From: an uncultured Alphaproteobacteria bacterium
GTDB lineage: Bacteria > Pseudomonadota > Alphaproteobacteria > Kiloniellales > JACOMY01
NCBI GenBank assembly: GCA_942492185.1
Contig: CALOEA010000062.1
Coordinates: 33,459-97,458, forward strand
Direction of reading: 5' to 3'
Length of the DNA: 64,000 nucleotides
Of this stretch, positions 11,509 to 30,371 are shown piece by piece (the stretch's first letter is position 1; every line of letters begins with the position of its first letter). The position numbers were made by a program, and so were the translations under genes. The notes under the pieces were generated by a model that saw only the letters and a program-made list of their open reading frames with translations, had not been told where the DNA came from and made no database searches.

Positions 11509-12843
11509 ATGAGCGTGACCACGCCCGAAGCGGTGCGCGACCGCGTGCTCGACGTCGACGAGCGACCGGCGGCGCCGACCTTCCTGCTGCTCAGCCTGCA
11601 GCACCTCTTCGCCATGTTCGGCGCCACCGTGCTGGTGCCGCTGCTGACCGGGCTCAATCCCTCGGTGGCGCTGATCTCCAGCGGCCTCGGCACGCTGCTC
11701 TTCATCGCCATCACCGGCGGGCGGGTGCCGGCCTACCTCGGCTCCTCCTTCGCCTTCATCGGGCCGATCATCGCCGCCTCGGCGCTGGGCGGGCCGGCCG
11801 GCGCGCTGCTGGGCGCGGCGGTGGCGGGGCTGGTCTACGTCACCGTCGCGGCCGCGCTGCGCGCCTTCGGTAGCGGCTGGCTGCTGCGCCTGCTGCCGCC
11901 GGTCGTCGTGGGCCCGGTGATCGTCGTCATCGGGCTCGGGCTCTCCAGCGTCGCCGTCTCCATGGCCACCAACACGGCCGCCGGCGGTCCCTACAGCCTC
12001 GGGCACTTCCTGGTCGCGCTCTTCACGCTCGGCGCCATCTTCGTCTTCACCCTGGTGCTGAAGGGATTCTTCACCGTAGTGCCGATCCTGCTGGGCATCC
12101 TCTGCGGCTATGCCCTGGCCGCCGCCGTCGGTTTCGTCGATTTCTCGCCGCTGCAGGCCGCCGAGCTCTTCGCCATGCCGGACTTCAGCCTCTTCTACGC
12201 CGGGCTGCCCGAGGGCGTCTCCGCCGGCTCGATGATCCTGCTGATCGCGCCGGTGGCCCTGGTCACCATCGCCGAACACATCGGCGACATGGTGGTCCTC
12301 TCGCGCGTCGTGGGGCGCCGATTCCTGGCCGACCCGGGGCTGCATCGCACGCTGCTGGGCGACGGCCTGGCGACCGCGCTGGCATCGCTGATCGGCGGAC
12401 CGCCGAACACCACCTACGGCGAGAACGTCGGCGTCATGGCGATCACCCGCGTCTTCAGCGCCTGGGTGGTGGGCGGCGCCGCCTGCCTCGCCAGCCTGCT
12501 GGGCTTCGTCGGCGTCCTGGCGGCCTTCCTCTCGACCATCCCGATGGCGGTGATGGGCGGCGTCGCGATCGCGCTCTTCGGCGTGATCGCGGCCTCGGGC
12601 ATCCGCACGCTGATCGAGGGCAAGGTCGACTTCGGCGACAAGCGCAACCTGCTGATCGCCTCGGTCATCCTGGTGCTGGGCATCGGCGGCGCGACGCTGC
12701 AGTTCAGTGGCGGCGAGGGCGGCGCGGCCTTTACCGTCTCCTCGATGGCGCTGGCCGCCGTGGCCGGCGTCTTCCTCAATGCCGTGCTGCCGGGCCGCAG
12801 CGAGCGCCACGAGATCGCCGGACCGACCGCCAGCCACGGCTAG
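11509..12843 (+). CDS. uraA: Uracil permease (NCS2 family)
   Basis: The blocks [33 protein letters not shown] and [17 protein letters not shown] match E. coli UraA as I remember it. RBS gaggggaga sits before ATG 11509. Confidence 0.85.
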
Positions 12844-14564
12844 GGGCCGGGCGCGCCGCCCGCCAGATCGAGACGGCGAAGCGGGCCGAGCCCCTCCGGC
12901 GCACGGTGTGCCACCAGCACAAAGGTGGTGTCCGGCAGCTCGCGCCGCAGCAGCGCGAGCACTTCCCGCTCGCGCTGCGGATCGAGGGCGCTGGTCGCCT
13001 CGTCCAGAAAGGCCCAGCGCGGCTGCTGCAGCAGCAGCCGCAACAGCACCAGGCGCTGCCGTTCGCCAAGCGACAGCTCCGCGCCCAGCGGTTCTGCGAC
13101 CGGCCGCTGCAGCAGGTGCGCCAGCCCGACCCTGCCCAGGAGGTCGGCGAGCCTCTCGTCGCCCGGCCGCGTCTCCCCCGGGTAGGCCAGGATGTCCGAC
13201 AGGCTGGCGAGCGGCAGATAGGGGCGCTGCGGCAGGTAGCAGGCCGCCTCGGCCGGGCGCAGCACCTCGCCCTGGCCATAGGGCCAGAGGCCGGCCAGGG
13301 CGCGCAGCAGCGAGGACTTGCCGAGGCCGGAGGGGCCGGTCACCAGCAGGTTCTCTCCCGGCGCCAGCGTGAGGTCGAGCGGACCGATCAGCGGCCGGCC
13401 GGACGGCGTCTCCAGCCGCAGGCCCGCCAGGTGGAAGGCCTCGTCGGCGCTGGAGCCGGTCCGCAGCGGCGACCGCCGGGCGGCCGATCCCACCCCGGCG
13501 CAAGCCGCGCGGAAGCGCTCGAGGCGCTGGGTCGTGGCCCGCAGTGCAGCGATTTCGTCGTAGGAGAATATGAAGCCGGACAGCGACCAGACGACCCGCT
13601 GGAAGGTGCTGCGCACCTGCATCAGCCCGCCCAGGGTCAGCTCGCCGGCGATATAGGCCGGCAGGGCGAGAAAGATCGGCACCTGCATGGTCGAGTGCAT
13701 GTAGGGCCAGGTGAAGGTGCCCAGGATCAGCTCGCGCCGGATCAGGCGCCGCCAGTTCCGCACGATGGCGGCGAAGCGCCCCTCCAGCATGCGCCGCTCC
13801 GCCCCCTCGCCGCCCAGCAGGGCCACGGCGTCGCCATCGTCGCGCAAGCGCACCAGGCCATAGCGGAAGTCGGCCTCCACACGCTGGCGCTCGACCTGGA
13901 TGGCCTTCAGCGGATTGCCCAGAAGATGGGCGATGCCGGAGGAGAGGGCGACGTAGAGGCCCGCGGCCCACACCAGGTAGTGCGGCACGACGATGTCGGT
14001 GCCCGCCACCGCGAGGGAGAGCGTCGGCGAAAGCGCCCAGAGCACCGTCACGAAGGAGAGCAGCCCGACGACGTCGGAGACGAACCCGAGCGAGAGGTCC
14101 AGGAGCTTGTCGACGAACAGCCGGCAGTCCTCGGAGATGCGCTGGTCCGGATTGTCGACGGCGCGGTCGCCGCCTTGCAGGCCGAGACGCCAGAAGGCCT
14201 TGTCGGCCAGCCAGCCGTCGAGCATCTGCCGCGTCAGGGCGGTTCGCCAGTGCATCTTCAAGCACTTCTGCAGATAGGTCCGCGAGAGGATCTGCAGTAC
14301 GTAGACGGCGATGATGACGCCGAAGACCCACACCTGCCGCCAGATCTCCGCCGCGTCGAGTTGCTCGAGCGCGTCGTAGAAGTCGGCGTTCCAGTCGATG
14401 ATCCGGAGATTGATGGCAATGCCGGCGCCGATCAGCGCCAGAACGCTCGCCAGATGGAGCGCGCCGACACGCCCCGCCGGAGAGAACCAATAGGGGCGCG
14501 AAAGGCGCCAGAGTGCGCGCAGGAAGGAGATCATCTTTGCCATGGGCCGGGAACGCGGGAGCAC
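12840..14564 (-). CDS. ABC transporter with an SbmA/BacA-type membrane domain fused to an ATPase (YddA/BclA-like)
   Basis: N-terminal membrane-domain blocks [13 protein letters not shown] and [13 protein letters not shown] motifs [16 protein letters not shown] (Walker A), LSLGERQRL (signature) and [10 protein letters not shown] (Walker B). The start is uncertain (GTG 14564 or ATG 14543). Confidence 0.8.
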
Positions 14565-14607: not shown

Positions 14608-16911
14608 TCAGAACTTCAGCGTCAGCGACAGGGTCGCGTTGAAACCCGGCGCGATCCGCGCCTCGATCGGGTTGCCGGCGGCGACCGCGGCGCTCGGTAT
14701 CTCCGGAGTGCCATAGGTCGAGACGGCATTCGCCGGCAGGTACCGCTGATCGAAGAGATTGAAGAGCCCGAGCCGCATCACGATCCAGGGCTCCGGCGTC
14801 CAATAGCCGACGAGATCGAAGACGTGATAGCTGTCGGACGTCAGGTCGCTATCGTCGCTCACCCGCGTCAGGCCCGCCTCGTAGGTGTGGATCAGCTCCA
14901 GGCCCCACACGCCGTCGTCGTAGCGCAGGCCGGTGACCGAGCTGAAGGGCTCCGCCCCGTTGTAGGGAATCTCCTTGGCCCCTTCGCTCGGCACCTGGTC
15001 GCCGTGCTGGTAGGAGAGCGTCGTGCGCGCATAGACGTTGTCGAAGAGACGAACCTCCGCGCTGCCCTCGACACCCCAGATCTCCACCTGCGAGATGTTC
15101 TTGTTGGTGAGATAGAGGATGTTGGGGTCCGGCCCCTCGATCTCCTGGAAGGCGGCGATGAAGTCGTCGTACTTGCTGTAGAAACCGGTCAGCGAGAAGG
15201 CCATGTCGGAGAAGACGGCACGACTGCCGATCTCGAAGGAGCGCACGCTCTCCGGCTTCAGGTCGGGATTGGGGACCAGGGAGAAGAAGGTCCCGAGCGA
15301 AGAGGTATAGAGCTGCTGCGCCGTCGGCGTCTTGAAACCCTCGCTGTAGGCCGCATAGACCGACACTTGGTCCGTCACCTTGAACAGCAGCGAGGCCGCC
15401 AGCAGCAGGTCGTTGTAGGTCGTGTCGCTCGGCTCCAGACCGGGTGCGGACTGGTAGCTTGCATCGGGTTGCGGCGAGATGCCGGTGTGCGTGTAGCGCA
15501 GCCCGGGCGCGAAGACCAGGCGGTCGTCGAAGAAGCCGAACTCTGCCAGGGCGAAGCCGTCGAGGCGCAGCGTGTCGGCCGCAGCGAAGCCCGGCACGTC
15601 GTTGGTCGTCGTGCTGCCGCCGTTCAGGTTCCTGGTCACGTCGACCGAGTCGTAGGAGCCCATGGTGTAGGAGCCGTCGATGCCATAGGTCAGGCGCGTC
15701 GAGATCGCGTCGGTCAGCGCGAAGGCCTTGTCGAACTGGGCTTCGAAGTCGATGAAGTCCTCGGAGTAGTCGCGCAGTGTCGTGCGCTCCTCGAACTCGC
15801 CGCTGGACAGCTCGATCAGGCGCACCGCGGTCCGCTTCACCTCGTGCGGCTGATAGGTGACCTGCCAGGCCAGACTGTCGAACAGCAAGCTGTCGGCCTG
15901 CCAGTCGTGCTCCAGGGAGATGCGCCAGCGGGTCAGCTCCTGCTGATGGTCGTAGTCGCGGATGATGCTGGTTCCGGTCAGGCTGTTGGTCACCGACTCC
16001 TGGTCGACGGAGGTGGTCTGCCGATAGAACTCGCCGGTCAGCGTCAGGCTGTTCGCCTCGCCCTGCCAGACCAGCTTGCCGATGAGATTGTCCGAGCCGT
16101 AGTCCTGCGGGTCGAGGCGGTCGCAGGGGGTGGCGGCGGGGTCGCGCGGGCAGTCACCCCAGATGCCGCCTGCGTTGCGGCCCTTGGTCAGCGCGACCTC
16201 CTGGCCGTCCCAGCGGCTGTAACCGGCCAGCAGTTCGAACTCCTCCACCCGGCCGGCGACGAGCACCGTCTCGTTGAAGGAGTTGTCCAGGCTGCCCCAG
16301 CGCACCGCCGTCTCGCCGCCGAAGGTCTCGCCGGGCGCCAGAATGTCGGAGGGATCGATGGTCTCGTAGCTCACCACGCCGCCCATCGCGTCGCTGCCCC
16401 AGAGGATCGAAGCCGGGCCGGCGATGATCTCGACGCTTCGCAGGAAGGCCAGGTCGACGTAGTTGCGCGTGCCGTCGCCGATGCGCTCGGCGACCCGGTT
16501 GCCGTCCACCAGCGTCAGGACCCGGTTGCCGCCGACGCCGCGGATCTTGAAGGCATCGATCTGATTGAAGGGGTCGGCGCCAAAGCCGCGTGTGACCGTG
16601 ACGCCGGGCGTATAGCGGATCAGCTCCTCGATATCGTTGAAGAGATAGGTCTCCTTGTCCTCGCGGCTGATGACCACGACGCTGGCGGGCGTGTCCTTCA
16701 GCGTCTTGAGCTTGCGCGTGCCGACGACGTTCACGGCGTCGAGGAAGACCGTCCCCAGGATCGCCGCCGCCTCGTCGGGCGGCGGCGGATCGCTGCTCTG
16801 CGCTGCCGCCTGCGGCACCGCCAGGGCGGCCGTGAGCAGCGTGCAGCCGAGCGCGGCGGCGAGGCCGCACCGTCCCCTGCGCAAGGCACATTTCACCGGA
16901 AGGCTGTTCAT
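14608..16911 (-). CDS. TonB-dependent outer-membrane receptor
   Basis: Signal peptide ending AVPQAAAQ, plug blocks ([34 protein letters not shown]), a long beta-barrel, and a terminal ...LSLTLKF. Substrate unknown. Confidence 0.9.
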
Positions 16912-17038: not shown

Positions 17039-18493
17039 TCAGCTAGTTATAATAGCACGCGTGACGGCGACCGCGCCGTCGTCGCGGGCCTCGAGCGTCG
17101 CCTCGCCCGCGACACGGCGGAGCTCGCTGTGGCTCTCCACGAAGAGGCCCTCGCCGGCGAGGGCGGCCAGCGCCGCCGCCGACAGCCGTGCGCCCCGCCA
17201 AAGGGTGCGACCGCGCGGCACCCGCCAGCGCGCGACCCAGTCCCGCTCGCTGGCCAGTTCGATCCTGCAGAGCCCCGGCCGGTCTCGCTCCGCGGCCAAG
17301 GCCAGCAGGATGCGGCCGAAGCCGCCTGCGGTTGCCCCCGGAGGCAGCCGCAGGCGGGCGCCTCCGGCGGGCAGCGGCAAGACTTCCAGGGCGAGCCGGC
17401 GGCGTGGGAAATGGCGGATCAGGCCCGGCAGGGGCAGGCGCGCTTCCTGCAGCCGTGCGGCGAAGAGGCTGGCCCGCCCCTGGCGGCGCGCCGCCGCCAG
17501 GCGGACGGCGGCGGCCCCCGCCAGCACCCGCCGCTCGTTGCGCCCGCGCAGATCGGTCGGCAGCAGACCCGCCGCCAGTTCCCCGCGCCAGGGCATCGGC
17601 GGCCGGGCGCCGGCCAGCGCGGCCAGCGGCAGGGGCAGCGAGCTCCCGACCTCCGCCGCCAGGAAGCGCAGCGCGAGGCCGACCTGTGCCGCCAAGCGGC
17701 GTGCCGCCACCGCGGCCAGCAGGCGATCGCAGTCGAGCGCCGGCCGGCGCAGCAGCGCGATGGCGTCGGCGGCCCAGTCCAGGGCGTTGCCGCTGGACCA
17801 CTGCACGCCCTGCGCCAGCGCCTGCAGCAGACGGTCCTCAGGCGCGGGGATCAGGAGGGCGCGGCCGACGAATGCGACCGGCTCGGCGGCCGCCCAGATT
17901 GCCGCATCGTCGCCGGCTACGCGGTTCTCCTTCAGCAAGCACCAGTGCAGGTCGATCTCGCCCTGGCCGCCATCGACCAGATTGACCGCGTGGTGCCGCG
18001 CCATCTCGCGCCCCTTCACCCGCGCCATGCGCCCGCCGCTCTGCGGCCGCCACCCGAGGCCAGCCAGCAAGTCGAGCGCCTCGTCGCAGCGGTCCGGCGG
18101 CAGCAGCAGGTCGATGTCGGCGATGTAGCGCTCGCCGGGCGCGGCCTCGCCGGCGGCCAGCGCCGCGCCGCCCTTCAGCAGCAGCAGCGGGATGCCGGCG
18201 CCCACCAGCGCGTCGAGCGCCGGCCCCGCCGCCGCCAGCTTGTGCTGGCCGTTGCTCCAGCAGTAGCGCCGGACGCCGAGCAGGCGCGGCCCGAAGGCTT
18301 CCTGCCGGCCGAGCCTCCCGAGCCGCCCGATTGCCGCCGCCGCCAGGCGCACGCTCGACCAGGGCAGCGCGTCGAGATCGACCGCCGCCTGCCACCCCCG
18401 CCAGAGCGCCGGCACCTCCGCTTCCGGCGCGGCCAGCAGGCGCAGCAGGCGCAGGTCGTCGGCGGAGACCCAGGGCAGCAGGCTTCCGGCCAT
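17039..18493 (-). CDS. Uncharacterised nucleotidyltransferase family protein (NTP_transf_5/PF14907-like)
   Basis: IPLLLLKGGAALAAGEAAPGERYIADIDLLLPPDRCDEALDLLAGLGW matches the family core as I remember it. 484 aa, 5 nt after the preceding GT2. Confidence 0.7.
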   Translation of the reverse strand: MAGSLLPWVSADDLRLLRLLAAPEAEVPALWRGWQAAVDLDALPWSSVRLAAAAIGRLGRLGRQEAFGPRLLGVRRYCWSNGQHKLAAAGPALDALVGAGIPLLLLKGGAALAAGEAAPGERYIADIDLLLPPDRCDEALDLLAGLGWRPQSGGRMARVKGREMARHHAVNLVDGGQGEIDLHWCLLKENRVAGDDAAIWAAAEPVAFVGRALLIPAPEDRLLQALAQGVQWSSGNALDWAADAIALLRRPALDCDRLLAAVAARRLAAQVGLALRFLAAEVGSSLPLPLAALAGARPPMPWRGELAAGLLPTDLRGRNERRVLAGAAAVRLAAARRQGRASLFAARLQEARLPLPGLIRHFPRRRLALEVLPLPAGGARLRLPPGATAGGFGRILLALAAERDRPGLCRIELASERDWVARWRVPRGRTLWRGARLSAAALAALAGEGLFVESHSELRRVAGEATLEARDDGAVAVTRAIITS

Positions 18494-18498
18494 CGCCG

Positions 18499-19185
18499 TC
18501 AGCCCTTGTCGGGGCGCCGGCGCTGCAGCGCACGGCGGATTGCCGCGATGTATGCGGGATGATGGCCATTGCCGCCGAAGGACAGGCTGCGCGGGTGCAG
18601 GCGACGATGCATCAGGACCTCGGGGTGGATCACCGTCTCGACGCCCGCCAGGCGGGCTCGGTCGAACCAGTCGATCATGTCGCCCATCTGCAGGCCGACC
18701 TGCAGCGGCCCGACCCGTGCGAAGACGCCACGACGGGCGAGCAGGCAGGATCGCAGCCAGCCCGCCCGGCTCTCCTGCGGCACCGCGATGGAGGCCCGCT
18801 CCGCCGGTGCCACCGAGGGGCAGAGGAAACAGTCAAAGTGGCAGAGCGCCATCCCGGCGCCCGGATGGGCGGACAGCAGCGCGGCCTGGCGGGCGAGCTT
18901 CTCCGGATGCCAGAGATCGTCGGCGTCGCAGAGGGCGACGAGTTCGCCGCCTGCCGCCGCGATCCCCCGGTTGGTCGCGGCTGCGACGCCGTCCGGCGGC
19001 TGCCGCAGCGCCCTGGCGCCGACGCTCTCCGCCAGGTCTGCCGTGCCGTCGTCGGAACCGTCGTCGACCACCAGGATCTCCAGCGGCGAAAGGCTCTGCG
19101 CGGCGATGGTGGCGAGCGTCTCCCCCAGCGTGCGCACGGCATTGCGCGCCGGGATCACGACGGAAACCTGCGCCGGCGCGGTCAT
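18499..19185 (-). CDS. Family-2 glycosyltransferase (third of three)
   Basis: VSVVIPARN...ILVVDDGSDDGT...CDADD motifs. ATG 19185 overlaps the stop of the upstream GT2 (ATGA). Confidence 0.85.
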   Translation of the reverse strand: MTAPAQVSVVIPARNAVRTLGETLATIAAQSLSPLEILVVDDGSDDGTADLAESVGARALRQPPDGVAAATNRGIAAAGGELVALCDADDLWHPEKLARQAALLSAHPGAGMALCHFDCFLCPSVAPAERASIAVPQESRAGWLRSCLLARRGVFARVGPLQVGLQMGDMIDWFDRARLAGVETVIHPEVLMHRRLHPRSLSFGGNGHHPAYIAAIRRALQRRRPDKG

Positions 19186-19883
19186 CCCTGCGCCACCGCG
19201 CGGCGACGCCGCAGCATCAGGTCGCGCACCGCGCGCAATAGTCCGGCGTAGTAGCCCTCGGCATTGCGCGACGCGTTGGCCGCATGAATGCGCCGCGTCA
19301 GCAGTACCTCCTCGGCCATCGCCGACTCCAGCCCGGCGTCCATCGCGCGGAAGAACCAATCGGTGTCGGAACCAAAGGCGAGGTCGGTGCGGAACAGGCC
19401 GGCGCGCCGAAAGGCGCTGCGGCGCGCCAGCAGGCATCCGGGGACGAAGCCCGGCAAGGGCCGCTCGAGGAAGGCTGGACGGACCCAGTCGGCGCCCGGC
19501 TCATCGAGCGCGACCAGGCGCTGGCGGGCCAGGACCCAGTCGCGGACCGGCGGCCCTGAAGCAGAGCCATCTGCCGGGCGAGCTTGTCTGGCGCCCAGAG
19601 ATCGTCCTGGTCGAGCAGCGCGATGAAATCGGAGCTTGCCGCCTCGATGCCGCGGTTCCGCGCCGCCGCCTCGCCGCGGTTTTCCTGCCGGATCAAGCGC
19701 GCCTCGGGAAAGTGCGCGGCGACCAGTGCGGCACCCTCGTCGCGCGCACCGACGTCGACCACGATGATTTCGACACTTGGCCAGGTCTGGGCCCGCCCCG
19801 AGTTACGCAGGCGATCTTGACGTTGAGAGCGCCGCCTGGTAGAGCGGGACGATGCGGCCACGCTGGGGAACGGTCACCGGCAT
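19182..19883 (-). pseudogene. Family-2 glycosyltransferase (second of three) with three frame changes
   Basis: MPVTVP..IVPLYQAA / LNVKIACVTR / AQTWPSVEIIVVD..RNRGIEAASSDFIALLDQDDLWAPDKLARQMALLQ / PPVRDWVLARQRLVAL..GCLLARRSAF...AVAQG*. The switches are at about 19832, 19795 and 19553. The first and last segments are in the same frame. Confidence 0.75.
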
Positions 19884-20622
19884 TCGCGATGCCGAGATAG
19901 CTTTCGAAGAGAGCGACATCCGCCAGGGCGCCGCCGCTGCGCCGCCGCGCGATCGAGAGCCGCAGCATCTCGAACAGCTGCAGGCGCTCCGGGGTCTGCG
20001 GCCCTCCGGTCATCGAGCCGAGGTGCCGGCGATAGTAGAGCGTTACCTGCTGCAGGATCACGAAAGGCACCCTGCGCTCGCGCATCCGCATGTAGAGGTC
20101 CATGTCCTCGCTGAAGCGCAGCGACTCGTCGAGACCGCCCAAGGCCTCCAGCGCCGCCCGGCGGTACAGCAGGGCGCCGAGATGGACATGGAACAGGGCG
20201 ATGCGGCGCGCCTCCGCGGCCGGCGCCAGCCCCTCGTCATCGGCGCGGTCGAACCAGCAGGTGAAGCCGCTGACGGCATCGAGTTCCGGCGCGGCCTTCA
20301 GTCGTGCGAGCTGCAGTGCCAGCTTGCCGGCCGGCCAGAGATCGTCGGCATCGATGAAGCCGACAACCGCCCCGCGCGCTTCGGCCAATCCCCGGTTCCG
20401 TGCGGCGGCCGGGCCGCCGTTCCGGGTGGTGATGACGCGGAGCCGTGGCTCGCGCTCCCGCCAGGCCGCCAGACGGTCCGGCGAGTCGTCGGTCGAGCCG
20501 TCGTCGACCGCGAGAATCTCGAAGTCGGTCACCTCCTGCCGCAGCACCGAGCGCAGCGCGTCGTCGAGAAAGGCACCGCCATTGAAGACGGGCAGGATGA
20601 TGCTGACCTCAGGGGCGGGCAT
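19693..20622 (-). CDS. Family-2 glycosyltransferase (first of three)
   Basis: VSIILPVFNG...ILAVDDGSTDDS...IDADD motifs. ATG 20622 overlaps the kinase-like gene by 14 nt. Similarity fades near 19870 but the frame stays open to 19693, so the 3' end is uncertain. Confidence 0.75.
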   Translation of the reverse strand: MPAPEVSIILPVFNGGAFLDDALRSVLRQEVTDFEILAVDDGSTDDSPDRLAAWREREPRLRVITTRNGGPAAARNRGLAEARGAVVGFIDADDLWPAGKLALQLARLKAAPELDAVSGFTCWFDRADDEGLAPAAEARRIALFHVHLGALLYRRAALEALGGLDESLRFSEDMDLYMRMRERRVPFVILQQVTLYYRRHLGSMTGGPQTPERLQLFEMLRLSIARRRSGGALADVALFESYLGIANAGDRSPAWPHRPALPGGALNVKIACVTRGGPRPGQVSKSSWSTSVRATRVPHWSPRTFPRRA

Positions 20623-21679
20623 CGGCCACCTCGTCGAGCAAGCGATGCAGCATGGCGGCAAGGGCGGCCGGATCGCTGCCCAGTGCCAGTTCGAAGCAGG
20701 GCAGCCGCCGGGTCAGCGCGGCCAGGTCGGCGAAGCGCCGGCTGTCGTGCCCGGGCAGCAGGAAGAGCGAGGAGGGTGCCAGCGCGCGCAGCAGCGGCGC
20801 GCCGCCGATGCGGCGGTGGCGGCTTTCAGCGCCGGCCACGACCCGCGGCAGCGCCAGCGCGGCGACCGGCAGCCAGGGCAGGTCGCGCCCGGGCAGGAGT
20901 TCGCGCTGATAGAGCCGCGCCTTCTGGCCGGCCGGACGGCCGGGATTGGCAACCGCGCCGGAGGGCACGGCCAGGCGCGCCAGCGCGTCGTCGGCAAGCT
21001 TCAGCGTCGAGAAGAGGCCGTGCGCCCGGGCGCCCTTGCGGCAGTCGAGGGCGATGAAGTCGTCGCCAACGCCGACCAGGCCGCCCTCGCGCAGGGCCAC
21101 CAGACTGGTGCTCGACTTGCCGGCACCGCCGGCGCCGGCAACCAGCAGGCCGGGTCCGGCGGGCCGGCCGAAACCGGCAGCGTGCACCATCGCCAGTCCC
21201 TGCCCTTCCAACGCCCAGGCGAGCAGCGTGCGGCACGGCGCGCCGAGGTCCCACTCGGGAATGGCGGCACGCTCGCGCGCCCAGTAGACCGCGCGCCCAC
21301 GGCGACGGTCGAGCACCTGCCAGACCGCGCCCTCCTGCCAGGAGGCCAGCGCCCAGTCGGCGTCGAGGTGGCGGCGGCGCTGGTGATCGTGGCTCAACAC
21401 CGGCAGCGGCCAGTCGGGCGGCGGCGCGAGTCCCGCCACCGCACCCACCAGGAGATCGATGCGCAGGAGGCTGCCGCCAGGCGTCGCCTCCGGCGGGTGC
21501 GCCGCCAGGCCGCGGCAGAAGGCGGCCAGCAACCCGGCATCGTGGCTGACCAGGTCCAGCGTCAACGGGCCGAGACCGAGCCGCCGCCGCGCTGTCATCG
21601 GCGCCTTATCGGCGCAGGCTAAGACGTGGCCGACGAAGTCGGCGAAAGCGGCGGCCCGACGGTTTGGCGCTCCGTCCAT
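20609..21679 (-). CDS. HPr kinase/phosphorylase-related P-loop protein (HprK-like)
   Basis: Walker-A-like LLVAGAGGAGKSSTSLVAL followed by GDDFIALD, as in the HprK C-terminal domain. 356 aa, 12 nt downstream of the PqqD-like gene. Confidence 0.65.
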   Translation of the reverse strand: MDGAPNRRAAAFADFVGHVLACADKAPMTARRRLGLGPLTLDLVSHDAGLLAAFCRGLAAHPPEATPGGSLLRIDLLVGAVAGLAPPPDWPLPVLSHDHQRRRHLDADWALASWQEGAVWQVLDRRRGRAVYWARERAAIPEWDLGAPCRTLLAWALEGQGLAMVHAAGFGRPAGPGLLVAGAGGAGKSSTSLVALREGGLVGVGDDFIALDCRKGARAHGLFSTLKLADDALARLAVPSGAVANPGRPAGQKARLYQRELLPGRDLPWLPVAALALPRVVAGAESRHRRIGGAPLLRALAPSSLFLLPGHDSRRFADLAALTRRLPCFELALGSDPAALAAMLHRLLDEVADARP

Positions 21680-21691
21680 CGCCGCGGCGTC

Positions 21692-22129
21692 TCACTCCGC
21701 CTTGGGCGTCAGCGGCGGCTTCACCGGCCAACCCTCGGCGTCGGTTACGTCGTGGACCGGGTCGAGCGCGATCAGTTCCTGCATGTCGGTGAAGCGCTCC
21801 AGACGAGGCGGCGCGAAGTCGGCCGCCGGCGCGAGATCCGGCGGCGTGCCGGAGCCGTCGCCCGCGCGCACCAGCTCCTCGGTCTCGAGCTCCTGCAGGA
21901 AGGCGAGCACGGTGGGTTCGACCGTCGCCGCCTCCGGTGCACCGGCGTAGGCGGCCGCCACCCGCGCCGCGATGGCCGCCGCGTCCAGACCGCAGCCGAT
22001 CAGGGGCCAGAGCCGCGGCGCGCTGCCGGTCAGGCTGTAGTAGATGCCGCGATCGAGGTGGATGACCACGACCTCCTCATCGAAGGCCTCGGCAACGACA
22101 TAGGGACTGTTGATGACGAGCGTGCTCAC
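21692..22129 (-). CDS. PqqD-like (RiPP recognition element-type) protein with a ~55-aa C-terminal extension
   Basis: Residues 1-88 fit the PqqD pattern (VVAEAFDEEVVVIHLDRGIYYSLTGSAPRLWPLI..LAFLQELETEELV). The tail is GDGSGTPPDLAPAADFAPPRLERFTDMQELIALDPVHDVTDAEGWPVKPPLTPKAE. Confidence 0.7.
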   Translation of the reverse strand: MSTLVINSPYVVAEAFDEEVVVIHLDRGIYYSLTGSAPRLWPLIGCGLDAAAIAARVAAAYAGAPEAATVEPTVLAFLQELETEELVRAGDGSGTPPDLAPAADFAPPRLERFTDMQELIALDPVHDVTDAEGWPVKPPLTPKAE

Positions 22130-22197: not shown

Positions 22198-23631
22198 TCA
22201 GAGCTTCGGACGACCCTTCTTGTCGCGGTAGAAGCCGCCGACCGCGCCCTCGAAGGCCGCGCCAGCATGGAACACCGAGGCATCATCGTAGGTGCGCCCG
22301 ACGATCGAGAGGCCGGTCGGCACGCCGTTGCCGGCGAAGCCCGACGGCAGCGACATCACCGGGCAGCGCGACAGCATGTTGAAGCACATGGTCATCAGCC
22401 ACTCCTCGATACCGTCCTGCGGCTTGCCGTTGATGACGAGCTTCTCCTTGACGTAGCTCTCGCCGGCCTTGACCGAGGGCACCGGCAAGGTCGGGCAGAG
22501 GAAGACCCGGTTGCGCTCCAGCACCGGGCCCAGCGCGGCATACATCTTCGCCTCGATCTCCAGGCCCTTCACGAAGTCGGCCTTCTTTACCTTGGCAGCC
22601 TGCTCGGCAAATGCCAGCGCGTAGTCCGTCATGATGTCGCGATGCTTTTTCACGTACTGCGCGATCCAAGGGCCGAAGATCGTACCGAAGTGCGCACGGC
22701 CGGCCATGGCGATCTCGTCGCGCTTCCAGCCGAGCTTCACCTCCTCGACCTTGGCGCCGAGCGAACGGAAGACCTCCACCGCCTGCAGGGTGTTCTCGAT
22801 CACGTCGGGCTCGATGTCGTAGCAGTCGAGGTCGAGCGAGACGGCGATCTTCCAGCCCTTCACCGACTTGAAGCTCGTCGGTACCGTCACCTTGGGGCGC
22901 AGCGAGACGATGTCCTTCGGATGCGGGCCGACCATGACGTTCTGCAGCAGTGCGCAGTCCAGCACCGAACGCGCCATCGGACCGACATGGCAGTACTGGT
23001 CGAGATTGAAGGGCGCCGAATCGGGATTGCGCCCATAGGGCGGCTTGTAGCCGACCACGCCGGACATCGAGGCCGGAATGCGGATCGAGCCGCCGATGTC
23101 GGAACCGTTGGCGAGGATCGTCGAACCGGAGGCGAGCGAGGCCCCGGCGCCGCCGGACGAGCCGCCCGGCGAGTAGTCGAGGTTCCAGGGCGTGCGGGTG
23201 ACGCCCCAGATGCGCGAGTGGGTGTAGGGCGCACAGGAGAACTCCGGCGCCGCGGAGCGCGCATGCACGATTGCGCCGGCCTGCAGGACCCGCTCGATCG
23301 AATAGTTGGTCTCGGGGTCGCTCGAATCCTTGTAGATCAGCGAGCCGAAGGTGGTGTTGTAACCCTCCATCAGGGTCTCGTCCTTGACCACCAGCGGGAT
23401 GCCCTCGAGCGCACGAGGCGCGCCGCCGCGCTTGCCATAGGCGGCCTCGGCCGCCTTCGCCTGCTCCAGCGCGCGGTCGAAGTAGGTCATCGGCAGCGCG
23501 TTGACCTTGGGCTCGGTCTTCTGCGCCCGCTTCACCACCGCCTTCATCAGCTCGACCGGCGACAGCTTCTTCTTCTTGAAGAGAGCCAGCGCCTCCCCGG
23601 CGGTGATGTAGCAAAGATCGTCCGACGCCAT
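22198..23631 (-). CDS. Amidase-signature family amidase
   Basis: 477 aa with the GGSSGG signature block (DYSPGGSSGGAGASLASG). 68 nt upstream of the PqqD-like gene on the same strand. Confidence 0.85.
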   Translation of the reverse strand: MASDDLCYITAGEALALFKKKKLSPVELMKAVVKRAQKTEPKVNALPMTYFDRALEQAKAAEAAYGKRGGAPRALEGIPLVVKDETLMEGYNTTFGSLIYKDSSDPETNYSIERVLQAGAIVHARSAAPEFSCAPYTHSRIWGVTRTPWNLDYSPGGSSGGAGASLASGSTILANGSDIGGSIRIPASMSGVVGYKPPYGRNPDSAPFNLDQYCHVGPMARSVLDCALLQNVMVGPHPKDIVSLRPKVTVPTSFKSVKGWKIAVSLDLDCYDIEPDVIENTLQAVEVFRSLGAKVEEVKLGWKRDEIAMAGRAHFGTIFGPWIAQYVKKHRDIMTDYALAFAEQAAKVKKADFVKGLEIEAKMYAALGPVLERNRVFLCPTLPVPSVKAGESYVKEKLVINGKPQDGIEEWLMTMCFNMLSRCPVMSLPSGFAGNGVPTGLSIVGRTYDDASVFHAGAAFEGAVGGFYRDKKGRPKL

Positions 23632-23737
23632 CGTCCCCTCCTCCAGCGTGCAAGGCGGCGCGGATCATGGCACAAGCTCTCGGGGCGGCGCGATGGTCTG
23701 CCGCCTCGCCGCACCGCAGAATCCGGAACCACGCCCC

Positions 23738-25567
23738 ATGATCGACGCCCCGCCCCTGCCGCCCGCCGCTGCCGCCGGACTTGAGGAGGCGCTGCTGCTG
23801 CTCGCCGCCGGTCAACTGGCAGAGGCCGCAGCCGCCTACCGCCGCGCCGAAGCCGAAGCACCGGCCGCCGCCGAATTGCCGCACCGCCTGGCGCTGGCCT
23901 TGGCCGGCATCGGCCGCCAACGCGACGCCCTGGTGCAACACTTCGTCGCACTGCGCCGGGAGAATGCAGGACTCTACCGCCAGACCCTGGCGCGCGCGCT
24001 CGCCGACGGCCGCAGCGACCTCGCCGGTGCCAGTCCCGCGATCCGCGAGACCCTGATCGGGCTGCTGCGGGCCGAGGACGTCAGCCCGCTCGACATCGGG
24101 CCGGCGGCGCTCTCGGTGCTGCAGCCCCATCCCGGCCTGGAGGGACTGCTGTCCGCCGCCTCGACCCCCGGCGTCGACGAGGAGCGGATGACCGCCGCGC
24201 TCGAGACCGCAGAGGCGCAGGCGCTGCTGGGCGACCCGCTCTGGCTCTGGCTGCTGTCGCGTGCCCTGCAGACCGCCTTGCCGATGGAGGGCCTGCTGAC
24301 GGTCCTGCGCCGCCTCGCCCTGTCGCGCGGCATGCGCCCGGAGCAGCCGGCCGGCCTGCTCGCCGATGCATTGGAGCCGCTGGCGGCGCTGGCGCTGCAG
24401 GCCAATCTCGGCAGCCACGCCTGGCTGGAGCTGAAGGCCGAACGCGAGGCCGTCGAGGCGCTGCAGACGCAGTGGAGCGCCAATCCTCCCGGCGAACTGG
24501 ACGCCGCCACGCTGCTGCTCGCCTGCTACCGCGCGCTGCCGAGCGACGCTGCGGTGCCGCGGCTGCCTGCCGGTCCCACCGTGCTGCTGGCGGAAGCGCA
24601 CGACCGGCTGCTGCTGTCGCCGCGGCGACGGCGCGAGACCGCCGCCCTGCTGCCGGGCCTGACGCCGGTCGCCGAGGGCGTCTCAGCTACGGTCCAGGCG
24701 CACTACGACGCCAATCCCTATCCGCGCTGGCTGGCCACCAATCTGCCGGAACCCCGGCCGCTGCCGGCCGTCCTGGCCGGCCTCTTTCCCTGGCTCGAGG
24801 CCGCGACGCTGCCGCAGCAGCAGCCGCTGCCGCTGCTGATCGCCGGCTGCGGCACCGGCGAGCAGGCGTTGCGCAGCGCCCGTCGCTTCGCCGGTGCCGA
24901 GGTGCTGGCGATCGACCTCTCCCGCACCGCGCTGGCCTATGGCCAGGAGCGTGCGGAAGCGGCGGGCCTGACCAACGTCACCTTCGCCCAGGCCGACATC
25001 ATGACGCTGGGCGAGCTCGATCAGCGCTTCGCGGTCATCGAATGCTTCGGCGTGCTGCACCATCTGGCCGACCCCTTCGCCGGCTGGCAGGTCCTGCGCC
25101 GGCTGCTGCTGCCCGGCGGGCTGATGCGGATCGCGCTCTACCGCCGCCGCGCCCGGGCGCCGCTGGCCGAGGCGCGGCGCCTGCTGGGGGCGGACGCCGC
25201 GGCCATCGCCACGGCCGACGAGCTGCGCGCGGCCCGCGCCCGCCTGCTGCGCCTCGCCGCGACGGAGCCTTCGGCCGCCTTCGTGCTGCGCTTTCTCGAC
25301 GCCTTCGACCTCGACGGGCTGCGCGACCTGCTGTTCCACGCGCAGGAGACCGACTTCACCCTGCCGCAGATCGACGACATGCTGCAGCGCCTCGGGCTGG
25401 AGTTCCTCGGCTTCGAACTGGAGCAGGCCGAGACGCGCACGGCCTTCCGCCAGCTCCATCCCGATCCGGCCGCCGAGCGCGACCTGAGCCTCTGGGACGC
25501 CTTCGAGGCCGATGAGCCGGAGAGCTTCCTCTCGATGTACCGCTTCTGGTGCCGCGCCGCCGACTGA
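23738..25567 (+). CDS. TPR-like repeat protein fused to a class I SAM-dependent methyltransferase
   Basis: Ala/Leu-rich helical-repeat N-terminus. Methyltransferase motif I LLIAGCGTGEQAL, then VLAIDLS and ECFGVLHHL. Start ATG 23738. Confidence 0.75.
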   Translation: MIDAPPLPPAAAAGLEEALLLLAAGQLAEAAAAYRRAEAEAPAAAELPHRLALALAGIGRQRDALVQHFVALRRENAGLYRQTLARALADGRSDLAGASPAIRETLIGLLRAEDVSPLDIGPAALSVLQPHPGLEGLLSAASTPGVDEERMTAALETAEAQALLGDPLWLWLLSRALQTALPMEGLLTVLRRLALSRGMRPEQPAGLLADALEPLAALALQANLGSHAWLELKAEREAVEALQTQWSANPPGELDAATLLLACYRALPSDAAVPRLPAGPTVLLAEAHDRLLLSPRRRRETAALLPGLTPVAEGVSATVQAHYDANPYPRWLATNLPEPRPLPAVLAGLFPWLEAATLPQQQPLPLLIAGCGTGEQALRSARRFAGAEVLAIDLSRTALAYGQERAEAAGLTNVTFAQADIMTLGELDQRFAVIECFGVLHHLADPFAGWQVLRRLLLPGGLMRIALYRRRARAPLAEARRLLGADAAAIATADELRAARARLLRLAATEPSAAFVLRFLDAFDLDGLRDLLFHAQETDFTLPQIDDMLQRLGLEFLGFELEQAETRTAFRQLHPDPAAERDLSLWDAFEADEPESFLSMYRFWCRAAD

Positions 25568-27957: not shown

Positions 27958-28295
27958 GCGGGGAACCCGTCATCGCGGGCTGGCACGCCCACATCTATTA
28001 CGACGACGAGAGTGTCGAGGCCGCCGCGGCGCTGCGCGAAGCCGCCGGCCAACGCTTTGCCGTGGAGCTCGGCCGGCTGCATCGCAAGCCGGTCGGACCG
28101 CATCCGCGCTGGAGCTGCCAGCTCGCCTTCGCGCCGGAGGTCTTTCCCCAGATCGTGCCCTGGCTGGCGCTGAACCGCGGCGAGCTGGTGATCTTCCTGC
28201 ACCCGGAGACCGGCCAGGCGGTCGAGGATCATCGCGACCGCGCGCTGTGGATGGGCACCGGCCTGGAGCTCAACCTGGCGGTGCTGCCGACCTAG
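27954..28295 (+). CDS. DOPA 4,5-dioxygenase family protein
   Basis: WHAHIYYD...GRLHRKPVGPHPRWSCQLAF...WLALNRGELVIFLHPETG..DHRDRALWMG matches the family. ATG 27954 overlaps the DUF1272 stop (ATGA). Confidence 0.8.
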   Translation: MSGEPVIAGWHAHIYYDDESVEAAAALREAAGQRFAVELGRLHRKPVGPHPRWSCQLAFAPEVFPQIVPWLALNRGELVIFLHPETGQAVEDHRDRALWMGTGLELNLAVLPT

Positions 28296-29176
28296 AAGCG
28301 CTCCTCCAGCTCGACCCACTCGGCGAAGCCGACGGCCTCCTTGAAGCCCTCGAAGGAGATGAAGTCGTCGGAGGCGAAGTCGAGCGTGCCGGCCTTCAGT
28401 TCCCCCAGCATCTCCTGCAGGGCCTTGGCGACCCGCATGATCAGCGTGGTGCCGTGCACCACCATGGCGAAGCCCATGTCGTAGAGCTCGCAGTCGGAGA
28501 GGATCGGCGTACGGCCGCCGACCAGCATGTTGCAGAACTGCGGCACGTCGAAGGCCTTGCCGATGCGCGCCAGCTCCTCGACCGTCTCCGGCGCCTCGAC
28601 GAAGATCCCGTCGGCGCCGGCGGCGATATAGCGCTCGGCGCGGCGCAGCGCATCGTCCAGGCCATGCACGGCGCGGGCATCGGTGCGGGCGATGAGGAAG
28701 AGGTCGCTGCCCTCGCGGGCGGCCGCGGCGGCACGGACCTTCTTCTCCATGACCTCGACCGGCACCACGTCCTTGCCGGCCATGTGGCCGCAGCGCTTCG
28801 GGGCCACCTGGTCCTCGATGAAGAGGGCGCCGGCGCCCATCCGCGCATAGGTCCGCACCGTGTGGGTGACGTTCTTGACGTCGCCATAGCCGTGATCGCC
28901 ATCGATCAGTACCGGCAGGGTGGTGGCGTTCAGAATGTCGCGCATGCCGGCCGCCATCTCGCCGAGCCCGACGAGCCCCACGTCGGGCAGGCCGTAGCGA
29001 GCGCCCACCAGCGGGAAGCCGCCAACCACCATGGCCTTGAAGCCGGCCTGTTCGATCAGCCGCGCGCTGAGCCCGTCGTAGGCCCCCGGGAGCACCAGCG
29101 GCCCCGCGCCGGCCAGCAGCTGGCGCCAGGTGGGTCGCTTCGGCCGGTCGGCGGGGGCGGGATTCTCAGCGGTCAT
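28292..29176 (-). CDS. Isocitrate lyase/PEP mutase superfamily enzyme (2-methylisocitrate lyase / oxaloacetate decarboxylase-like)
   Basis: LVLPGAYDGLSARLIEQAGF, LIDGDHGYG, GALFIEDQVAPKRCGHMAGK and ARTDA blocks. Start ATG 29176 (MTAENP...). Confidence 0.8.
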   Translation of the reverse strand: MTAENPAPADRPKRPTWRQLLAGAGPLVLPGAYDGLSARLIEQAGFKAMVVGGFPLVGARYGLPDVGLVGLGEMAAGMRDILNATTLPVLIDGDHGYGDVKNVTHTVRTYARMGAGALFIEDQVAPKRCGHMAGKDVVPVEVMEKKVRAAAAAREGSDLFLIARTDARAVHGLDDALRRAERYIAAGADGIFVEAPETVEELARIGKAFDVPQFCNMLVGGRTPILSDCELYDMGFAMVVHGTTLIMRVAKALQEMLGELKAGTLDFASDDFISFEGFKEAVGFAEWVELEERF

Positions 29177-29348
29177 GGGACTACCTTCTGCATCAAGAAC
29201 GGGGGTCTTCGCGGATCGGCACTTGTGGCCGAGGGAACCGTCAGCATTATTGACTCGAACAGGCGGAATAATAAACAATCGTTTGTTCGGCTTAATAACG
29301 AAACCGGCGGCGGAAACGGTCGCCTGCGTATCCTTGGGAGGACCCGTC

Positions 29349-30371
29349 ATGACACGCTCTCTGCGCACTTCGCGCATCTTTTCGACCCGCGCTGCCACCG
29401 CCGTCGGCGCCACGCTGCTGGCCGCGGCGCTGGCCAGCGGTGCTGCTGCCACCGAACTGCGGGTGACCAGCCAGCTGCCGCCGACCCATCCGGTGACCGC
29501 CAATCTCATCGAGTTCGCCGATCGCGTGAACGAGATCTCCGGCGGCGAGCTGACCTTCGAAATCTTCCACTCGGCGCAGCTCTACAAGGACAACGAGACG
29601 CCGGCGGCTGTCTCCTCCGGCGCCGTCGACATGGGCACCGCCTCGCTGACCCAGTTCGCCGGCACCATTCCGGCGGTCGACATCTTCTATGTGCCCTTCA
29701 CCTTCAAGGATGCCGCCGCGGTCGATGCCGCCACGGCGCAGGGCAGCCCGGTGCGCGGCCCGATCGACGAAGCGATCCTGGCGACCGGTTCGCGCGTCCT
29801 CTGGTGGCAGGCGGTTGGCGGTGCCGTCATCATGTCGCGCGACCCGATCATCATGCCGAGTGACATGGCCGGCAAGAAGGTCCGCGTCTTCTCCAAGACC
29901 CTCGGCACCTTCGTCGAGACCCTGGGCGGCGCCGCGGCCTCGATCAGCGGCTCCGAGCAGTTCCTCGCCTACCAGCAGGGCACGGTCGATGCCGGCATGT
30001 CCTCCGCGGCCGGTGTCACCGCGCGCAAGATCTACGAGGTGCTGGACTACATGACGGTCAGCAACCACGCCGATGTCGAGTTCGTCGTGCTGATGAACGA
30101 GGGCGTCTGGCAGGGTCTGACCCAGCAGGAGCGCGATTGGATCGACCTGGCCGGCAAGGAGGTCGAGGCTTCGCTGCGCGCCACGATCAACCAGCAGGAC
30201 GCCGAGGCCATCGAGTTCATCAAGGCCGAGACCGACATGCAGGTCATCGAGCTGACCCCCGAGCAGCGCGCGGCCTGGGTCGAGGCCAGCAAGCCGGTGC
30301 TCGAGTCCTACCTCATGTCTTCCGGCGAACTGGGCGAACGCCTGGTGAAAGGCGCCGCCGAAATCCAGTAA
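29349..30371 (+). CDS. dctP: TRAP transporter substrate-binding protein (DctP family), system 1
   Basis: Signal peptide, DctP-type fold blocks, RBS gggagga, followed by dctQ and dctM. Confidence 0.85.
   Translation: MTRSLRTSRIFSTRAATAVGATLLAAALASGAAATELRVTSQLPPTHPVTANLIEFADRVNEISGGELTFEIFHSAQLYKDNETPAAVSSGAVDMGTASLTQFAGTIPAVDIFYVPFTFKDAAAVDAATAQGSPVRGPIDEAILATGSRVLWWQAVGGAVIMSRDPIIMPSDMAGKKVRVFSKTLGTFVETLGGAAASISGSEQFLAYQQGTVDAGMSSAAGVTARKIYEVLDYMTVSNHADVEFVVLMNEGVWQGLTQQERDWIDLAGKEVEASLRATINQQDAEAIEFIKAETDMQVIELTPEQRAAWVEASKPVLESYLMSSGELGERLVKGAAEIQ

Follow-up and report, generated by a model that had tools for sequence, protein, structure and literature searches.

The stretch of DNA analysed here, 64,000 nucleotides from an uncultured alphaproteobacterium (contig CALOEA010000062.1, positions 33,459 to 97,458; called the window below, and all coordinates are positions in it unless a locus is named), carries on its minus strand a six-gene operon that is an instance of a widespread and uncharacterised cassette. 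Its genes follow the order P-K-G(1-3)-N, where P is a PqqD-like protein, K an HprK-like kinase, G a family-2 glycosyltransferase (GT2) and N a nucleotidyltransferase-fold protein of the NTP_transf_5 family. A preliminary description of the window had regarded the operon as a distinct, uncharacterised peptide- or glycoconjugate-modifying pathway assembled from parts that accompany some lasso peptide clusters, a view that our analysis supports, and had seen no cyclase, protease or precursor in it. The absent precursor is probably the C-terminal tail of the PqqD protein itself, which follows a peptide-binding domain, the RiPP recognition element (RRE; RiPP, ribosomally synthesised and post-translationally modified peptide), and a leader-like motif in the same polypeptide. 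By analogy with related pathways, P would be a probable substrate or scaffold for the neighbouring kinase, sugar transferases and nucleotidyltransferase, and we put the probability of this reading at about 0.5.

Conservation of the cassette

The gene order PqqD, HprK-like kinase, GT2, NTP_transf_5 was found at about 140 loci in at least ten phyla, with hosts among the Pseudomonadota, Actinomycetota, Chloroflexota, Cyanobacteriota, Bacteroidota, Planctomycetota, Verrucomicrobiota, Acidobacteriota, Myxococcota and Neomarinimicrobiota, and the recurrence of the same cassette at so many independent loci places the arrangement far beyond chance. A search that started from K and scanned one genome per species returned 64 loci. 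When the neighbouring open reading frames (ORFs) of 63 loci, including the window, were clustered, K was represented at 63, GT2 and PqqD at 58 each and NTP_transf_5 at 49, the usual order was P>K>G(1-3)>N with frequent 4-nt gene overlaps, and broad conservation around K was limited to these four families. Likewise, a search from P gave 80 metagenome loci, in which K was adjacent to P in 57 of the 62 with enough flanking sequence, and K, GT2 and N were all there in 21 of the 25 with at least 5 kb downstream. The neighbourhood comparison that the preliminary description had proposed for finding the invariant partners thus identified P, K, GT2 and NTP_transf_5 as the only broadly conserved ones, with P and K as the most constant. 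The nearest relatives, loci L001 and L002, come from metagenome-assembled genomes (MAGs) of Rhodospirillales and Pseudomonadota; they share this gene order, and none of their three GT2 genes is disrupted. No description of the cassette emerged from literature searches, and a search of P, K, N and the first and third GT2 with the PADLOC models gave no match to anti-phage defence families.

Accessory genes occurred only in subsets of the loci and comprised ABC half-transporters (about 12 of 61 loci), family-1 glycosyltransferases (GT1), NDP-sugar epimerases and dehydratases, a short-chain dehydrogenase/reductase (SDR) and a sulfotransferase. Some loci are variants of the usual order. In metagenome variants N directly follows K or P, as at L069 (38-2450; P-K-N), L096, L098 and L133, with no GT2 between, so that the number of GT2 genes ranges from zero to at least four. 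On the low-GC chromosome of an Ekhidna sp. (L014:8067-13619) the order is GT2-K-P-GT2-GT2-N, preceded by a sulfotransferase gene (Sulfotransfer_1, E = 1.1e-10), and the Pro of the xxPxL motif in its P tail is replaced (FKDLTY). A full P-K-G-G-N cassette is present in a cultured public strain, Yoonia tamlensis DSM 26879 (L024; NZ_FOYP01000001.1, 679718-700665).

The RRE domain, leader-like motif and tail of P

Cassette P proteins are about 145 aa long, compared with about 85-95 aa for canonical lasso RREs, and every one of them consists of three parts, namely an RRE some 90 aa in length, a linker that is variable and rich in Pro, Ala, Glu and Ser, and a strongly conserved C-terminal block of the form [F/Y/W]xxPxL..[Y/F]TDMQELLLLDPIHDVD..GWP. 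The AlphaFold model of the window protein (mean predicted local distance difference test score, pLDDT, 88.7; input alignment of 128 sequences) has RRE strands at residues 4-6, 11-15, 20-24 and 29-34 and helices at 37-43, 50-60 and 67-83, all predicted with a pLDDT of 92-98, and E19, G28 and Y30 of this domain are invariant among the 128 homologues. The best Foldseek match in the PDB was the lasso RRE TbiB1 with its leader (5v1v_A, E = 1.7e-4, target TM score 0.79, 32% identity); the TbiB1 leader complexes 5v1v and 5v1u aligned with target TM scores of 0.75-0.79 at 32-34% identity, and 6jx3 was also among the best PDB matches. The predicted fold is TbiB1-like, yet the NCBIfam model lasso_PqqD_Bac scores P at 29 bits against a cut-off of 80.

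The C-terminal block was analysed in alignments of 55 proteins from genome loci and 128 database homologues, 182 sequences when combined. In window numbering, position 105 is F in 70%, Y in 18% and W in 7% of these sequences, and hence aromatic in 95%, while P108 is conserved in 97%, L110 in 81% and Y/F113 in 98%. In the tail that follows, position 114 is T in 81%, D in 8% and S in 6% (T/S 87%, D/E 10%), and conservation is very high at D115 (98%), M116 (93%), D123 (100%), P124 (99%), H126 (99%), G133 (98%), W134 (100%) and P135 (99%). The start of the block, [F/Y/W]xxPx[L/V], fits the leader motif that RREs bind: [Y/W]xxPx[L/V/I/A/F/Y] is the sequence bound by the RREs of lasso, pyrroloquinoline quinone (PQQ) and linear polyphosphorylated peptide (LPP) pathways (PMC13381572; PMC10368454) and sits at -17 to -12 in lasso leaders (PMC10368454). 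The model of P has a linker of pLDDT about 96, then a beta-strand formed by residues 109-113, where the pLDDT drops from about 96 to 84, and a helix at 116-122; residues 121-145, with a pLDDT of 54-58, are predicted to be flexible in the monomer. Since a strand assigned by DSSP in a single chain needs a partner and nearly all other strands lie in the RRE, we infer that strand 109-113 pairs with the RRE and docks on it as leaders do, with RRE beta-3 as the specific partner. Mean-field direct coupling analysis of 351 P sequences yielded mainly gap artefacts and no couplings between RRE and tail that could be used, the tail residues being too invariant to covary.

Each locus has a single tail, which is always C-terminal in P. 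A profile of the tail alone (43 positions), searched against 1.84 billion representative proteins, matched 3,119 representatives at E <= 1e-3, of which 1,835 remained at E <= 1e-10. Most of the top 150 of the 3,119 matches were proteins of 140-160 aa that carry the tail at roughly residues 110-150, and no PDB chain matched the profile. Database names of P-type proteins are only 'PqqD family protein' or 'hypothetical'. Apparent stand-alone tail peptides of 47-90 aa were considered and rejected as probable fragments, whose N-termini often continue the third RRE helix. One such case lies at a contig edge (L069), and another on a contig of 2.4x coverage, where the RRE is frameshifted and truncated (L068).

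Search for a separate precursor, a cyclase and a protease

Clustering of the small ORFs (12-90 aa) around 61 loci produced only clusters of low complexity or of shadow ORFs, as is typical of high-GC DNA. No small ORF proved to be conserved at the cassette loci, and the low-GC Ekhidna locus has no space for one. Moreover, a leader-only profile run against six-frame segments of the approximately 140 loci recovered 137 P tails and two variant tails in P proteins, and its next best match beyond the P proteins reached only 8.4 bits (E = 3.4). The earlier impression that no precursor is in sight overlooks P itself, which has a leader-like [F/Y/W]xxPxL and an invariant tail; an RRE that carries its own leader-like motif and tail would explain why the precursor search fails.

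Alternatively, a separate precursor might be encoded elsewhere in the genome, and the cis pseudo-leader of P might be an autoinhibitory element or placeholder that is displaced by the true leader. Some RiPP precursors are indeed not linked to their clusters, and the P motif mostly contains Phe, while high-affinity lasso and LPP leaders use a hydrogen-bonded Tyr (PMC13381572), so that the pseudo-leader could be a weak, displaceable ligand. We nevertheless consider this explanation improbable, since no free-standing ORF with the motif was found at the approximately 140 loci, the fused form alone was found in the 1.84 billion representatives, where the short matches look like contig-edge or frameshift fragments, and the residues that follow the pseudo-leader are invariant, which would be needless for a placeholder.

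Pfam scans of the window flanks found neither Asn-synthetase-like cyclase nor peptidase genes and no match to a transglutaminase-like B2 peptidase, and no extra conserved family was present in the 63 loci. In a set of 71 large ORFs located no more than 3 kb from related cassettes, no family had more than four members, and Asn_synthase was not among the recurrent families (at least two members). The sole confirmed Asn_synthase among the neighbours at related loci (E = 6e-22) belongs to L066 (900-4513 of an acidobacterial MAG contig), where a 94-aa tail-less PqqD and a 587-aa Asn_synthase cyclase accompany the most distant K homologue. Upstream of this K lies a candidate separate leader ORF, WSAPRLTAYGDVRQLT, in the canonical -17 to -2 register. 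It was recognised by eye only, the leader-only profile gave no significant match to it, and its likeness to FAPPRLERFTDMQELI is a lead only. L066 is a genuine kinase-containing lasso cluster and serves both as a positive control and as a contrast to the cassettes with tailed P.

The lack of a lasso cyclase and protease thus extends from the window flanks to the neighbours of the related loci, and the one locus with an Asn_synthase has a tail-less PqqD, which argues against the operon being a fragment of a lasso cluster. A lasso-cluster remnant, or an ordinary exopolysaccharide or lipopolysaccharide locus in which P and K are incidental, would account for the fact that K, N and PqqD occur with some lasso clusters (PMC6993621, PMC10368454), that one GT2 gene of the window is a pseudogene and that some relatives are close to sugar-nucleotide genes. 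However, the cassette is a self-contained set of four families that recurs across the phyla in shifting genomic contexts, with no Asn_synthase or other family recurrent among its neighbours; in the window it is flanked by sarcosine oxidase, xanthine permease, TonB receptor, amidase and methyltransferase genes; and P and K are its most constant members rather than dispensable ones. Both forms of this explanation are largely refuted, and we give them hardly any weight.

The kinase, the nucleotidyltransferase and the glycosyltransferases

As a single sequence, the window K matched no Pfam or NCBIfam model at E <= 0.01 and no PDB sequence, and a family profile was therefore required, which was built from 16 homologues obtained by a word-indexed search. 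Invariant in this alignment are H166, followed by G182-S189 (in GAGGxGKS[ST]) and G205-D207 (GDD). The best PDB matches of the profile were the HprK structures 1ko7, 1jb1 and 2qmh (E = 1.9e-4 to 1.7e-3, with 1.9e-4 for 1ko7), and the alignment to them covers exactly the segment that contains the His, the Walker A motif and (A/G)DD. The Pfam model Hpr_kinase_C gave weak sub-threshold matches in 15 of the 16 members (best E = 3.8e-5; window K 12.6 bits against a gathering score of 33.3). Similar matches, all far below the cut-offs, were obtained with the NCBIfam models HprK_rel_B (16/16 members; best E = 8.2e-6; window K 12.9 bits), HprK_rel_A (15/16; best E = 1.4e-12), HPr(Ser) kinase (11/16) and ScmC (6/16). 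The AlphaFold model of K (pLDDT 88.4) has phosphoenolpyruvate (PEP) carboxykinases as its top Foldseek matches (E about 3e-9), and the catalytic C-terminal domain of HprK shares the PEP carboxykinase fold class. The catalytic core of HprK, consisting of the His, the Walker A motif GxxGxGK[ST] and (A/G)DD on a PEP carboxykinase-like fold, is present in K. The label 'HprK-like' given by the preliminary description is thus backed by the family profile, the weak family-wide model matches and the predicted fold, although the window protein alone matches no model. On this sequence and model evidence, K appears to be a divergent HprK/PEP carboxykinase-like P-loop kinase with its catalytic core kept, an assignment that is remote yet sound.

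The PqqD and NTP_transf_5 assignments of the preliminary description passed the Pfam profile search (Table 1). In N the NTP_transf_5 match covers residues 93-279 with 92.8 bits against a gathering score of 31.2, and no sequence relative of N was found in the PDB. PsmN (PMC6993621), LppN and BsfN are described in the same way as N. The motifs GAGGAGKSSTSLVAL of the kinase and LLLKGGAAL..YIADIDLLLPPD of the last gene, noted earlier, were both found in the translations.

With regard to the 'three GT2' genes of the preliminary description, the first and third (GT2a and GT2c) meet the Pfam cut-off for Glycos_transf_2 and have a DxD motif; the middle one (GT2b) is a pseudogene in the window and matches as a frameshifted fragment. 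The nearest solved relatives of GT2a are glycan-extending GT-A enzymes, such as chondroitin synthase, and judged by their sequences the GT2s are ordinary soluble GT-A enzymes nearest to glycan-extending transferases. A test for glycocin-type transferases like SunS gave a match to TIGR04195 (S_glycosyl_SunS) with the GT2b fragment only, at 16.3 bits against a cut-off of 350.

A proposed role for P

These features suggest a mechanism in which the pseudo-leader of P would be bound in cis by the RRE of the same chain and add a beta-strand to it. With the pseudo-leader held in this way, P would act as a single-chain 'RRE:leader complex' that presents the flexible conserved tail. K would phosphorylate this tail, N would attach a sugar or sugar-phosphate to the tail phosphate, as PsmN may do, and the GT2 enzymes would lengthen the glycan, which would lead to a phospho-glycosylated small protein or to something later cut from P. 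RRE-assisted HprK-like kinases phosphorylate Ser3 of the core, often repeatedly, as reported for the RRE-stimulated BsfK (PMC10368454) and for LppK (PMC13381572), and PsmN is needed to add hexose to phospho-Ser, one or two hexoses being placed on the phosphate (PMC6993621). In the lasso register, with the aromatic residue at -17, D123 and P124 of P fall at core positions +2 and +3, and the LPP phospho-Ser lies 18 residues past the motif Tyr, which is the position of D123 in P. The invariant DPxH is thus located where the related kinases act. More tentatively, and at somewhat less than even odds, P proteins may form a large unrecognised class of 'self-leadered' RREs, with the cassette converting the invariant DPxH...GWP tail of this 15-kDa protein to a phospho-glycosylated species or to a cofactor-like fragment that is cut from it.

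Several points weigh against this proposal. All of its chemical steps are drawn by analogy, and beta-3 of the RRE is a presumed pairing partner. The supposed core is near-invariant across phyla, unlike typical RiPP cores, and this invariance would fit a docking or structural motif equally well. There is, moreover, no invariant Ser or Thr at the site where the related kinases act, so the acceptor might be non-canonical (Asp or His); T114 is the best hydroxyl candidate, but could equally well be a helix N-cap. LppK takes Ser only, BsfK takes Ser or Thr, and LppN was inactive in the one LPP study (PMC13381572). The fold of K also resembles that of small-molecule kinases (PEP carboxykinase). Finally, release and export are left unexplained by a cassette that has no conserved protease and an exporter at only about 12 of 61 loci.

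Some of these points would also be expected if P were an adapter whose tail serves as the docking site where K, N and the GT2s form a complex, with a small molecule, lipid or sugar as the acceptor on which this complex would build a phosphorylated glycan or glycoconjugate; the cis pseudo-leader would then merely stabilise P. The near-invariance of the tail is typical of interaction motifs, and the lack of an invariant Ser/Thr acceptor, the best fit of the predicted K fold to PEP carboxykinases, which act on small molecules, the similarity of the GT2s to glycan-extending enzymes and the addition of GT1, NDP-sugar epimerases/dehydratases, SDR or sulfotransferase at some loci all agree with such a role. 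On the other hand, RRE domains are known to bind peptides, the tail opens with the exact RRE-bound motif in a strand that is predicted to be docked, clustering of the neighbour families revealed no conserved priming phosphoglycosyltransferase, flippase or polymerase, and the pair of K and N is so far known solely from peptide pathways (PMC6993621, PMC10368454, PMC13381572). We therefore hold the adapter role to be the less plausible one, with perhaps one chance in four, and prefer P as the substrate or scaffold of the cassette enzymes.

RRE-guided peptide modification is central to work on ribosomal natural products, and genome mining presumes a separate short precursor gene. If P functions as proposed, an RRE with its own leader-like motif would be a blind spot of current mining tools, and P would be the first natural example of a single polypeptide that unites recognition domain, leader and modified segment. 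This cis-leader architecture would surprise specialists, and the chemistry attached to it is inferred throughout. The family comprises 3,119 representative clusters with a broad phylogeny and a compact enzyme set (kinase, NTP_transf_5, GT2) that could show the role of NTP_transf_5 enzymes such as PsmN, LppN and BsfN. The candidate substrate and all enzymes lie within one 5-kb operon, and Yoonia tamlensis DSM 26879 is a cultured carrier.

Organisation and integrity of the operon in the window

The window has a G+C content of about 70% and thus many long spurious ORFs, and gene calls were therefore judged by the G+C content of third codon positions (GC3) together with homology. The six-gene set occupies 17039-22129 of the minus strand with a GC3 of 0.88-0.92 (Table 1). 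P and K are separated by a 12-nt gap, K and GT2a overlap by 14 nt, GT2b and GT2c share an ATGA overlap, and a 5-nt gap lies between GT2c and N. Five of the six genes are intact. The head-to-tail arrangement given in the preliminary description was borne out for P, K, the start of GT2a, GT2c and N; promoter, terminator and Rfam scans of the operon region found nothing.

Table 1. Features of the operon, with positions in the window and the evidence for each assignment.
Feature	Position	Strand	Evidence
P, PqqD-like, 145 aa: RRE, linker, leader-like motif and conserved tail	21692..22129	-	Pfam PqqD, E = 8.6e-11
RRE (winged-helix peptide-binding) domain of P, residues 1-89	21863..22129	-	AlphaFold, conservation
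Leader-like motif FAPPRLERF of P, residues 105-113	21791..21817	-	fits [F/Y/W]xxPx[L/V]xx[Y/F]
Conserved tail TDMQELIALDPVHDVTDAEGWP of P, residues 114-135: short helix, then flexible DPxH...GWP	21725..21790	-	conservation, AlphaFold
K, HprK-like/PEP carboxykinase-like P-loop kinase, 356 aa	20609..21679	-	family profile, predicted fold
Walker A GAGGAGKS of K, then GDD	21113-21136	-	
GT2a, family-2 glycosyltransferase; homology to relatives ends at about 19886	19693..20622	-	Glycos_transf_2, E = 1.6e-29
GT2b, second GT2 remnant, pseudogene in the assembly	19182..19883	-	frameshifts, DDG->DVG
GT2c, family-2 glycosyltransferase, 228 aa, intact	18499..19185	-	Glycos_transf_2, E = 6.7e-26
N, NTP_transf_5 (PF14907) nucleotidyltransferase-fold protein, 484 aa, DxD motif DIDLLL	17039..18493	-	Pfam, E = 3.2e-26

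GT2b, the exception, had been described as an intact ORF, but a one-frame reading stops at codon 27, and when it is compared by tblastn and three-frame translation with the orthologues of L001 and L002, which are intact, the homology switches frame twice, near 19816-19830 and 19550-19559. Its nucleotide-binding DDG reads DVG. The motifs IPxxN, DDGSxD and DADD, said earlier to be present in each GT2, are IVPLYQ, DVGARD and DQDD in GT2b, and the fragment 19298-19861 still fits Glycos_transf_2 (E = 1.8e-19). GT2a has no stop at 19883, and its ORF continues to 19693, since it has lost the TGA with which GT2a of the relatives overlaps the start of GT2b (CCATGACC in relatives, AATGCCGGTGACC in the window); the extension of GT2a amounts to about 63 codons and runs across the 5' end of the decayed GT2b. 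The presence of several lesions in a span of 350 bp, with neighbouring genes otherwise intact, suggests that GT2b has truly decayed, an assembly error being the alternative, and such decay leaves at most two GT2 steps in this genome.

Genomic surroundings

The operon is flanked by genes for sarcosine oxidase, xanthine permease, an SbmA-like ABC protein, a TonB haem receptor, an amidase, a large methyltransferase and a WYL regulator. Some of these genes keep their place next to the cassette in its closest relatives alone, and the others are unrelated to it. Two minus-strand genes separate the cassette from the xanthine permease gene, one for an SbmA/BacA-like ABC protein (12840-14564; ABC_membrane_2, SbmA_BacA and ABC_tran), which is of another type than the half-transporters and not syntenic, and one for a TonB-dependent receptor of the haem/haemoglobin type (14608-16911). 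SbmA-type proteins import peptide antibiotics. The SbmA/TonB pair is not conserved with the cassette and looks inserted, since the permease directly follows the cassette in L002. Upstream of P, at a distance of 68 nt and on the same strand, an amidase-signature enzyme is encoded (22198-23631), and 16 nt beyond it a divergent plus-strand gene (23648-25567) encodes a 639-aa protein with a C-terminal methyltransferase domain and a weak match to PADLOC 'mad2' (E = 1.6e-12). The amidase and methyltransferase were rejected as cassette members, being syntenic only in L001 and L002. About 6 kb from the cassette, at 28292-29581 on the minus strand, lies a gene for a member of the PEP mutase family (Pfam PEP_mutase, E = 6.7e-48); no such gene was seen in the flanks of either L001 or L002. 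PEP mutase is a hallmark of phosphonate biosynthesis. A PEP mutase gene neighbourhood with a PF14907 nucleotidyltransferase was noted in one survey (PMC8942020).

Comparison with known systems

Compared by description, the nearest published relative of the cassette is the group of LPP gene clusters known from Bacillota (Popov et al., Nat Commun 2026, PMC13381572). What the two share is an HprK-like kinase together with a discrete RRE of apparent lasso type and an NTP transferase that is uncharacterised, the lack of a macrolactam cyclase, glycosyltransferases in the vicinity and a leader motif of the [Y/W]xxPx[L/V] type. However, LPP clusters encode a separate precursor of 35-200 aa with the leader YxxPxVLxHQxIxFETxxS, whereas in the cassette the motif is fused to the RRE, no separate precursor was found, and the cis-motif consensus departs from the LPP leader after PxL. 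The LPP clusters use a SipW-like signal peptidase I as leader peptidase, of which no counterpart was found in the window flanks or among the conserved neighbours, and have a core MsbA-like exporter, in place of which ABC_membrane plus ABC_tran half-transporters occur in the subset of cassette loci given above and are absent from that of the window. In contrast to the LPP clusters, GT2 genes are core members of the cassette. Moreover, LPP clusters are described as confined to Bacillota, while the cassette is present in Pseudomonadota, Actinomycetota, Cyanobacteriota, Chloroflexota, Bacteroidota, Planctomycetota, Verrucomicrobiota and others.

Modified lasso clusters (paeninodin, pseudomycoidin psm and Bradymonas bsf) share with the cassette an RRE that in P is B1-like by predicted fold (TbiB1, 32-33% identity), an RRE-boosted HprK-like kinase and a PsmN/BsfN-type nucleotidyltransferase, and their leader register Y(-17)xxP(-14)xL(-12) is a further likeness to the cassette motif. 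Unlike them, the cassette lacks a cyclase, a B2 protease and a separate precursor with a Y/WxxPxL...T(-2) leader. The HPr-rel-A system (TIGR04352 HprK_rel_A, TIGR04355 HprK_rel_B, TIGR04353 PqqD_rel_X), which the preliminary description had given as the only catalogued home of a PqqD/HprK pairing, shares this pairing and the lack of a known precursor. Its kinases are distant relatives of K, all cassette scores being far below the 200-bit cut-offs, and the window P had no match to TIGR04353 at E <= 0.01, only lasso_PqqD models appearing, so that the cassette does not belong there. HPr-rel-A systems have two kinases and are not known to include core GT2 genes. A modified segment that forms the C-terminal tail of a folded pathway protein is found in borosin-type precursors, in which the core is fused to the modifying enzyme (OphMA), and in carrier-tail proteins such as LysW; their folds and chemistry are unrelated, and the fusion partner in the cassette is a recognition domain, the RRE, and not an enzyme. 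In summary, the cassette belongs with systems of RRE-guided kinase/NTP-transferase modification, and the leader-like motif fused in cis to the RRE is its unusual twist.

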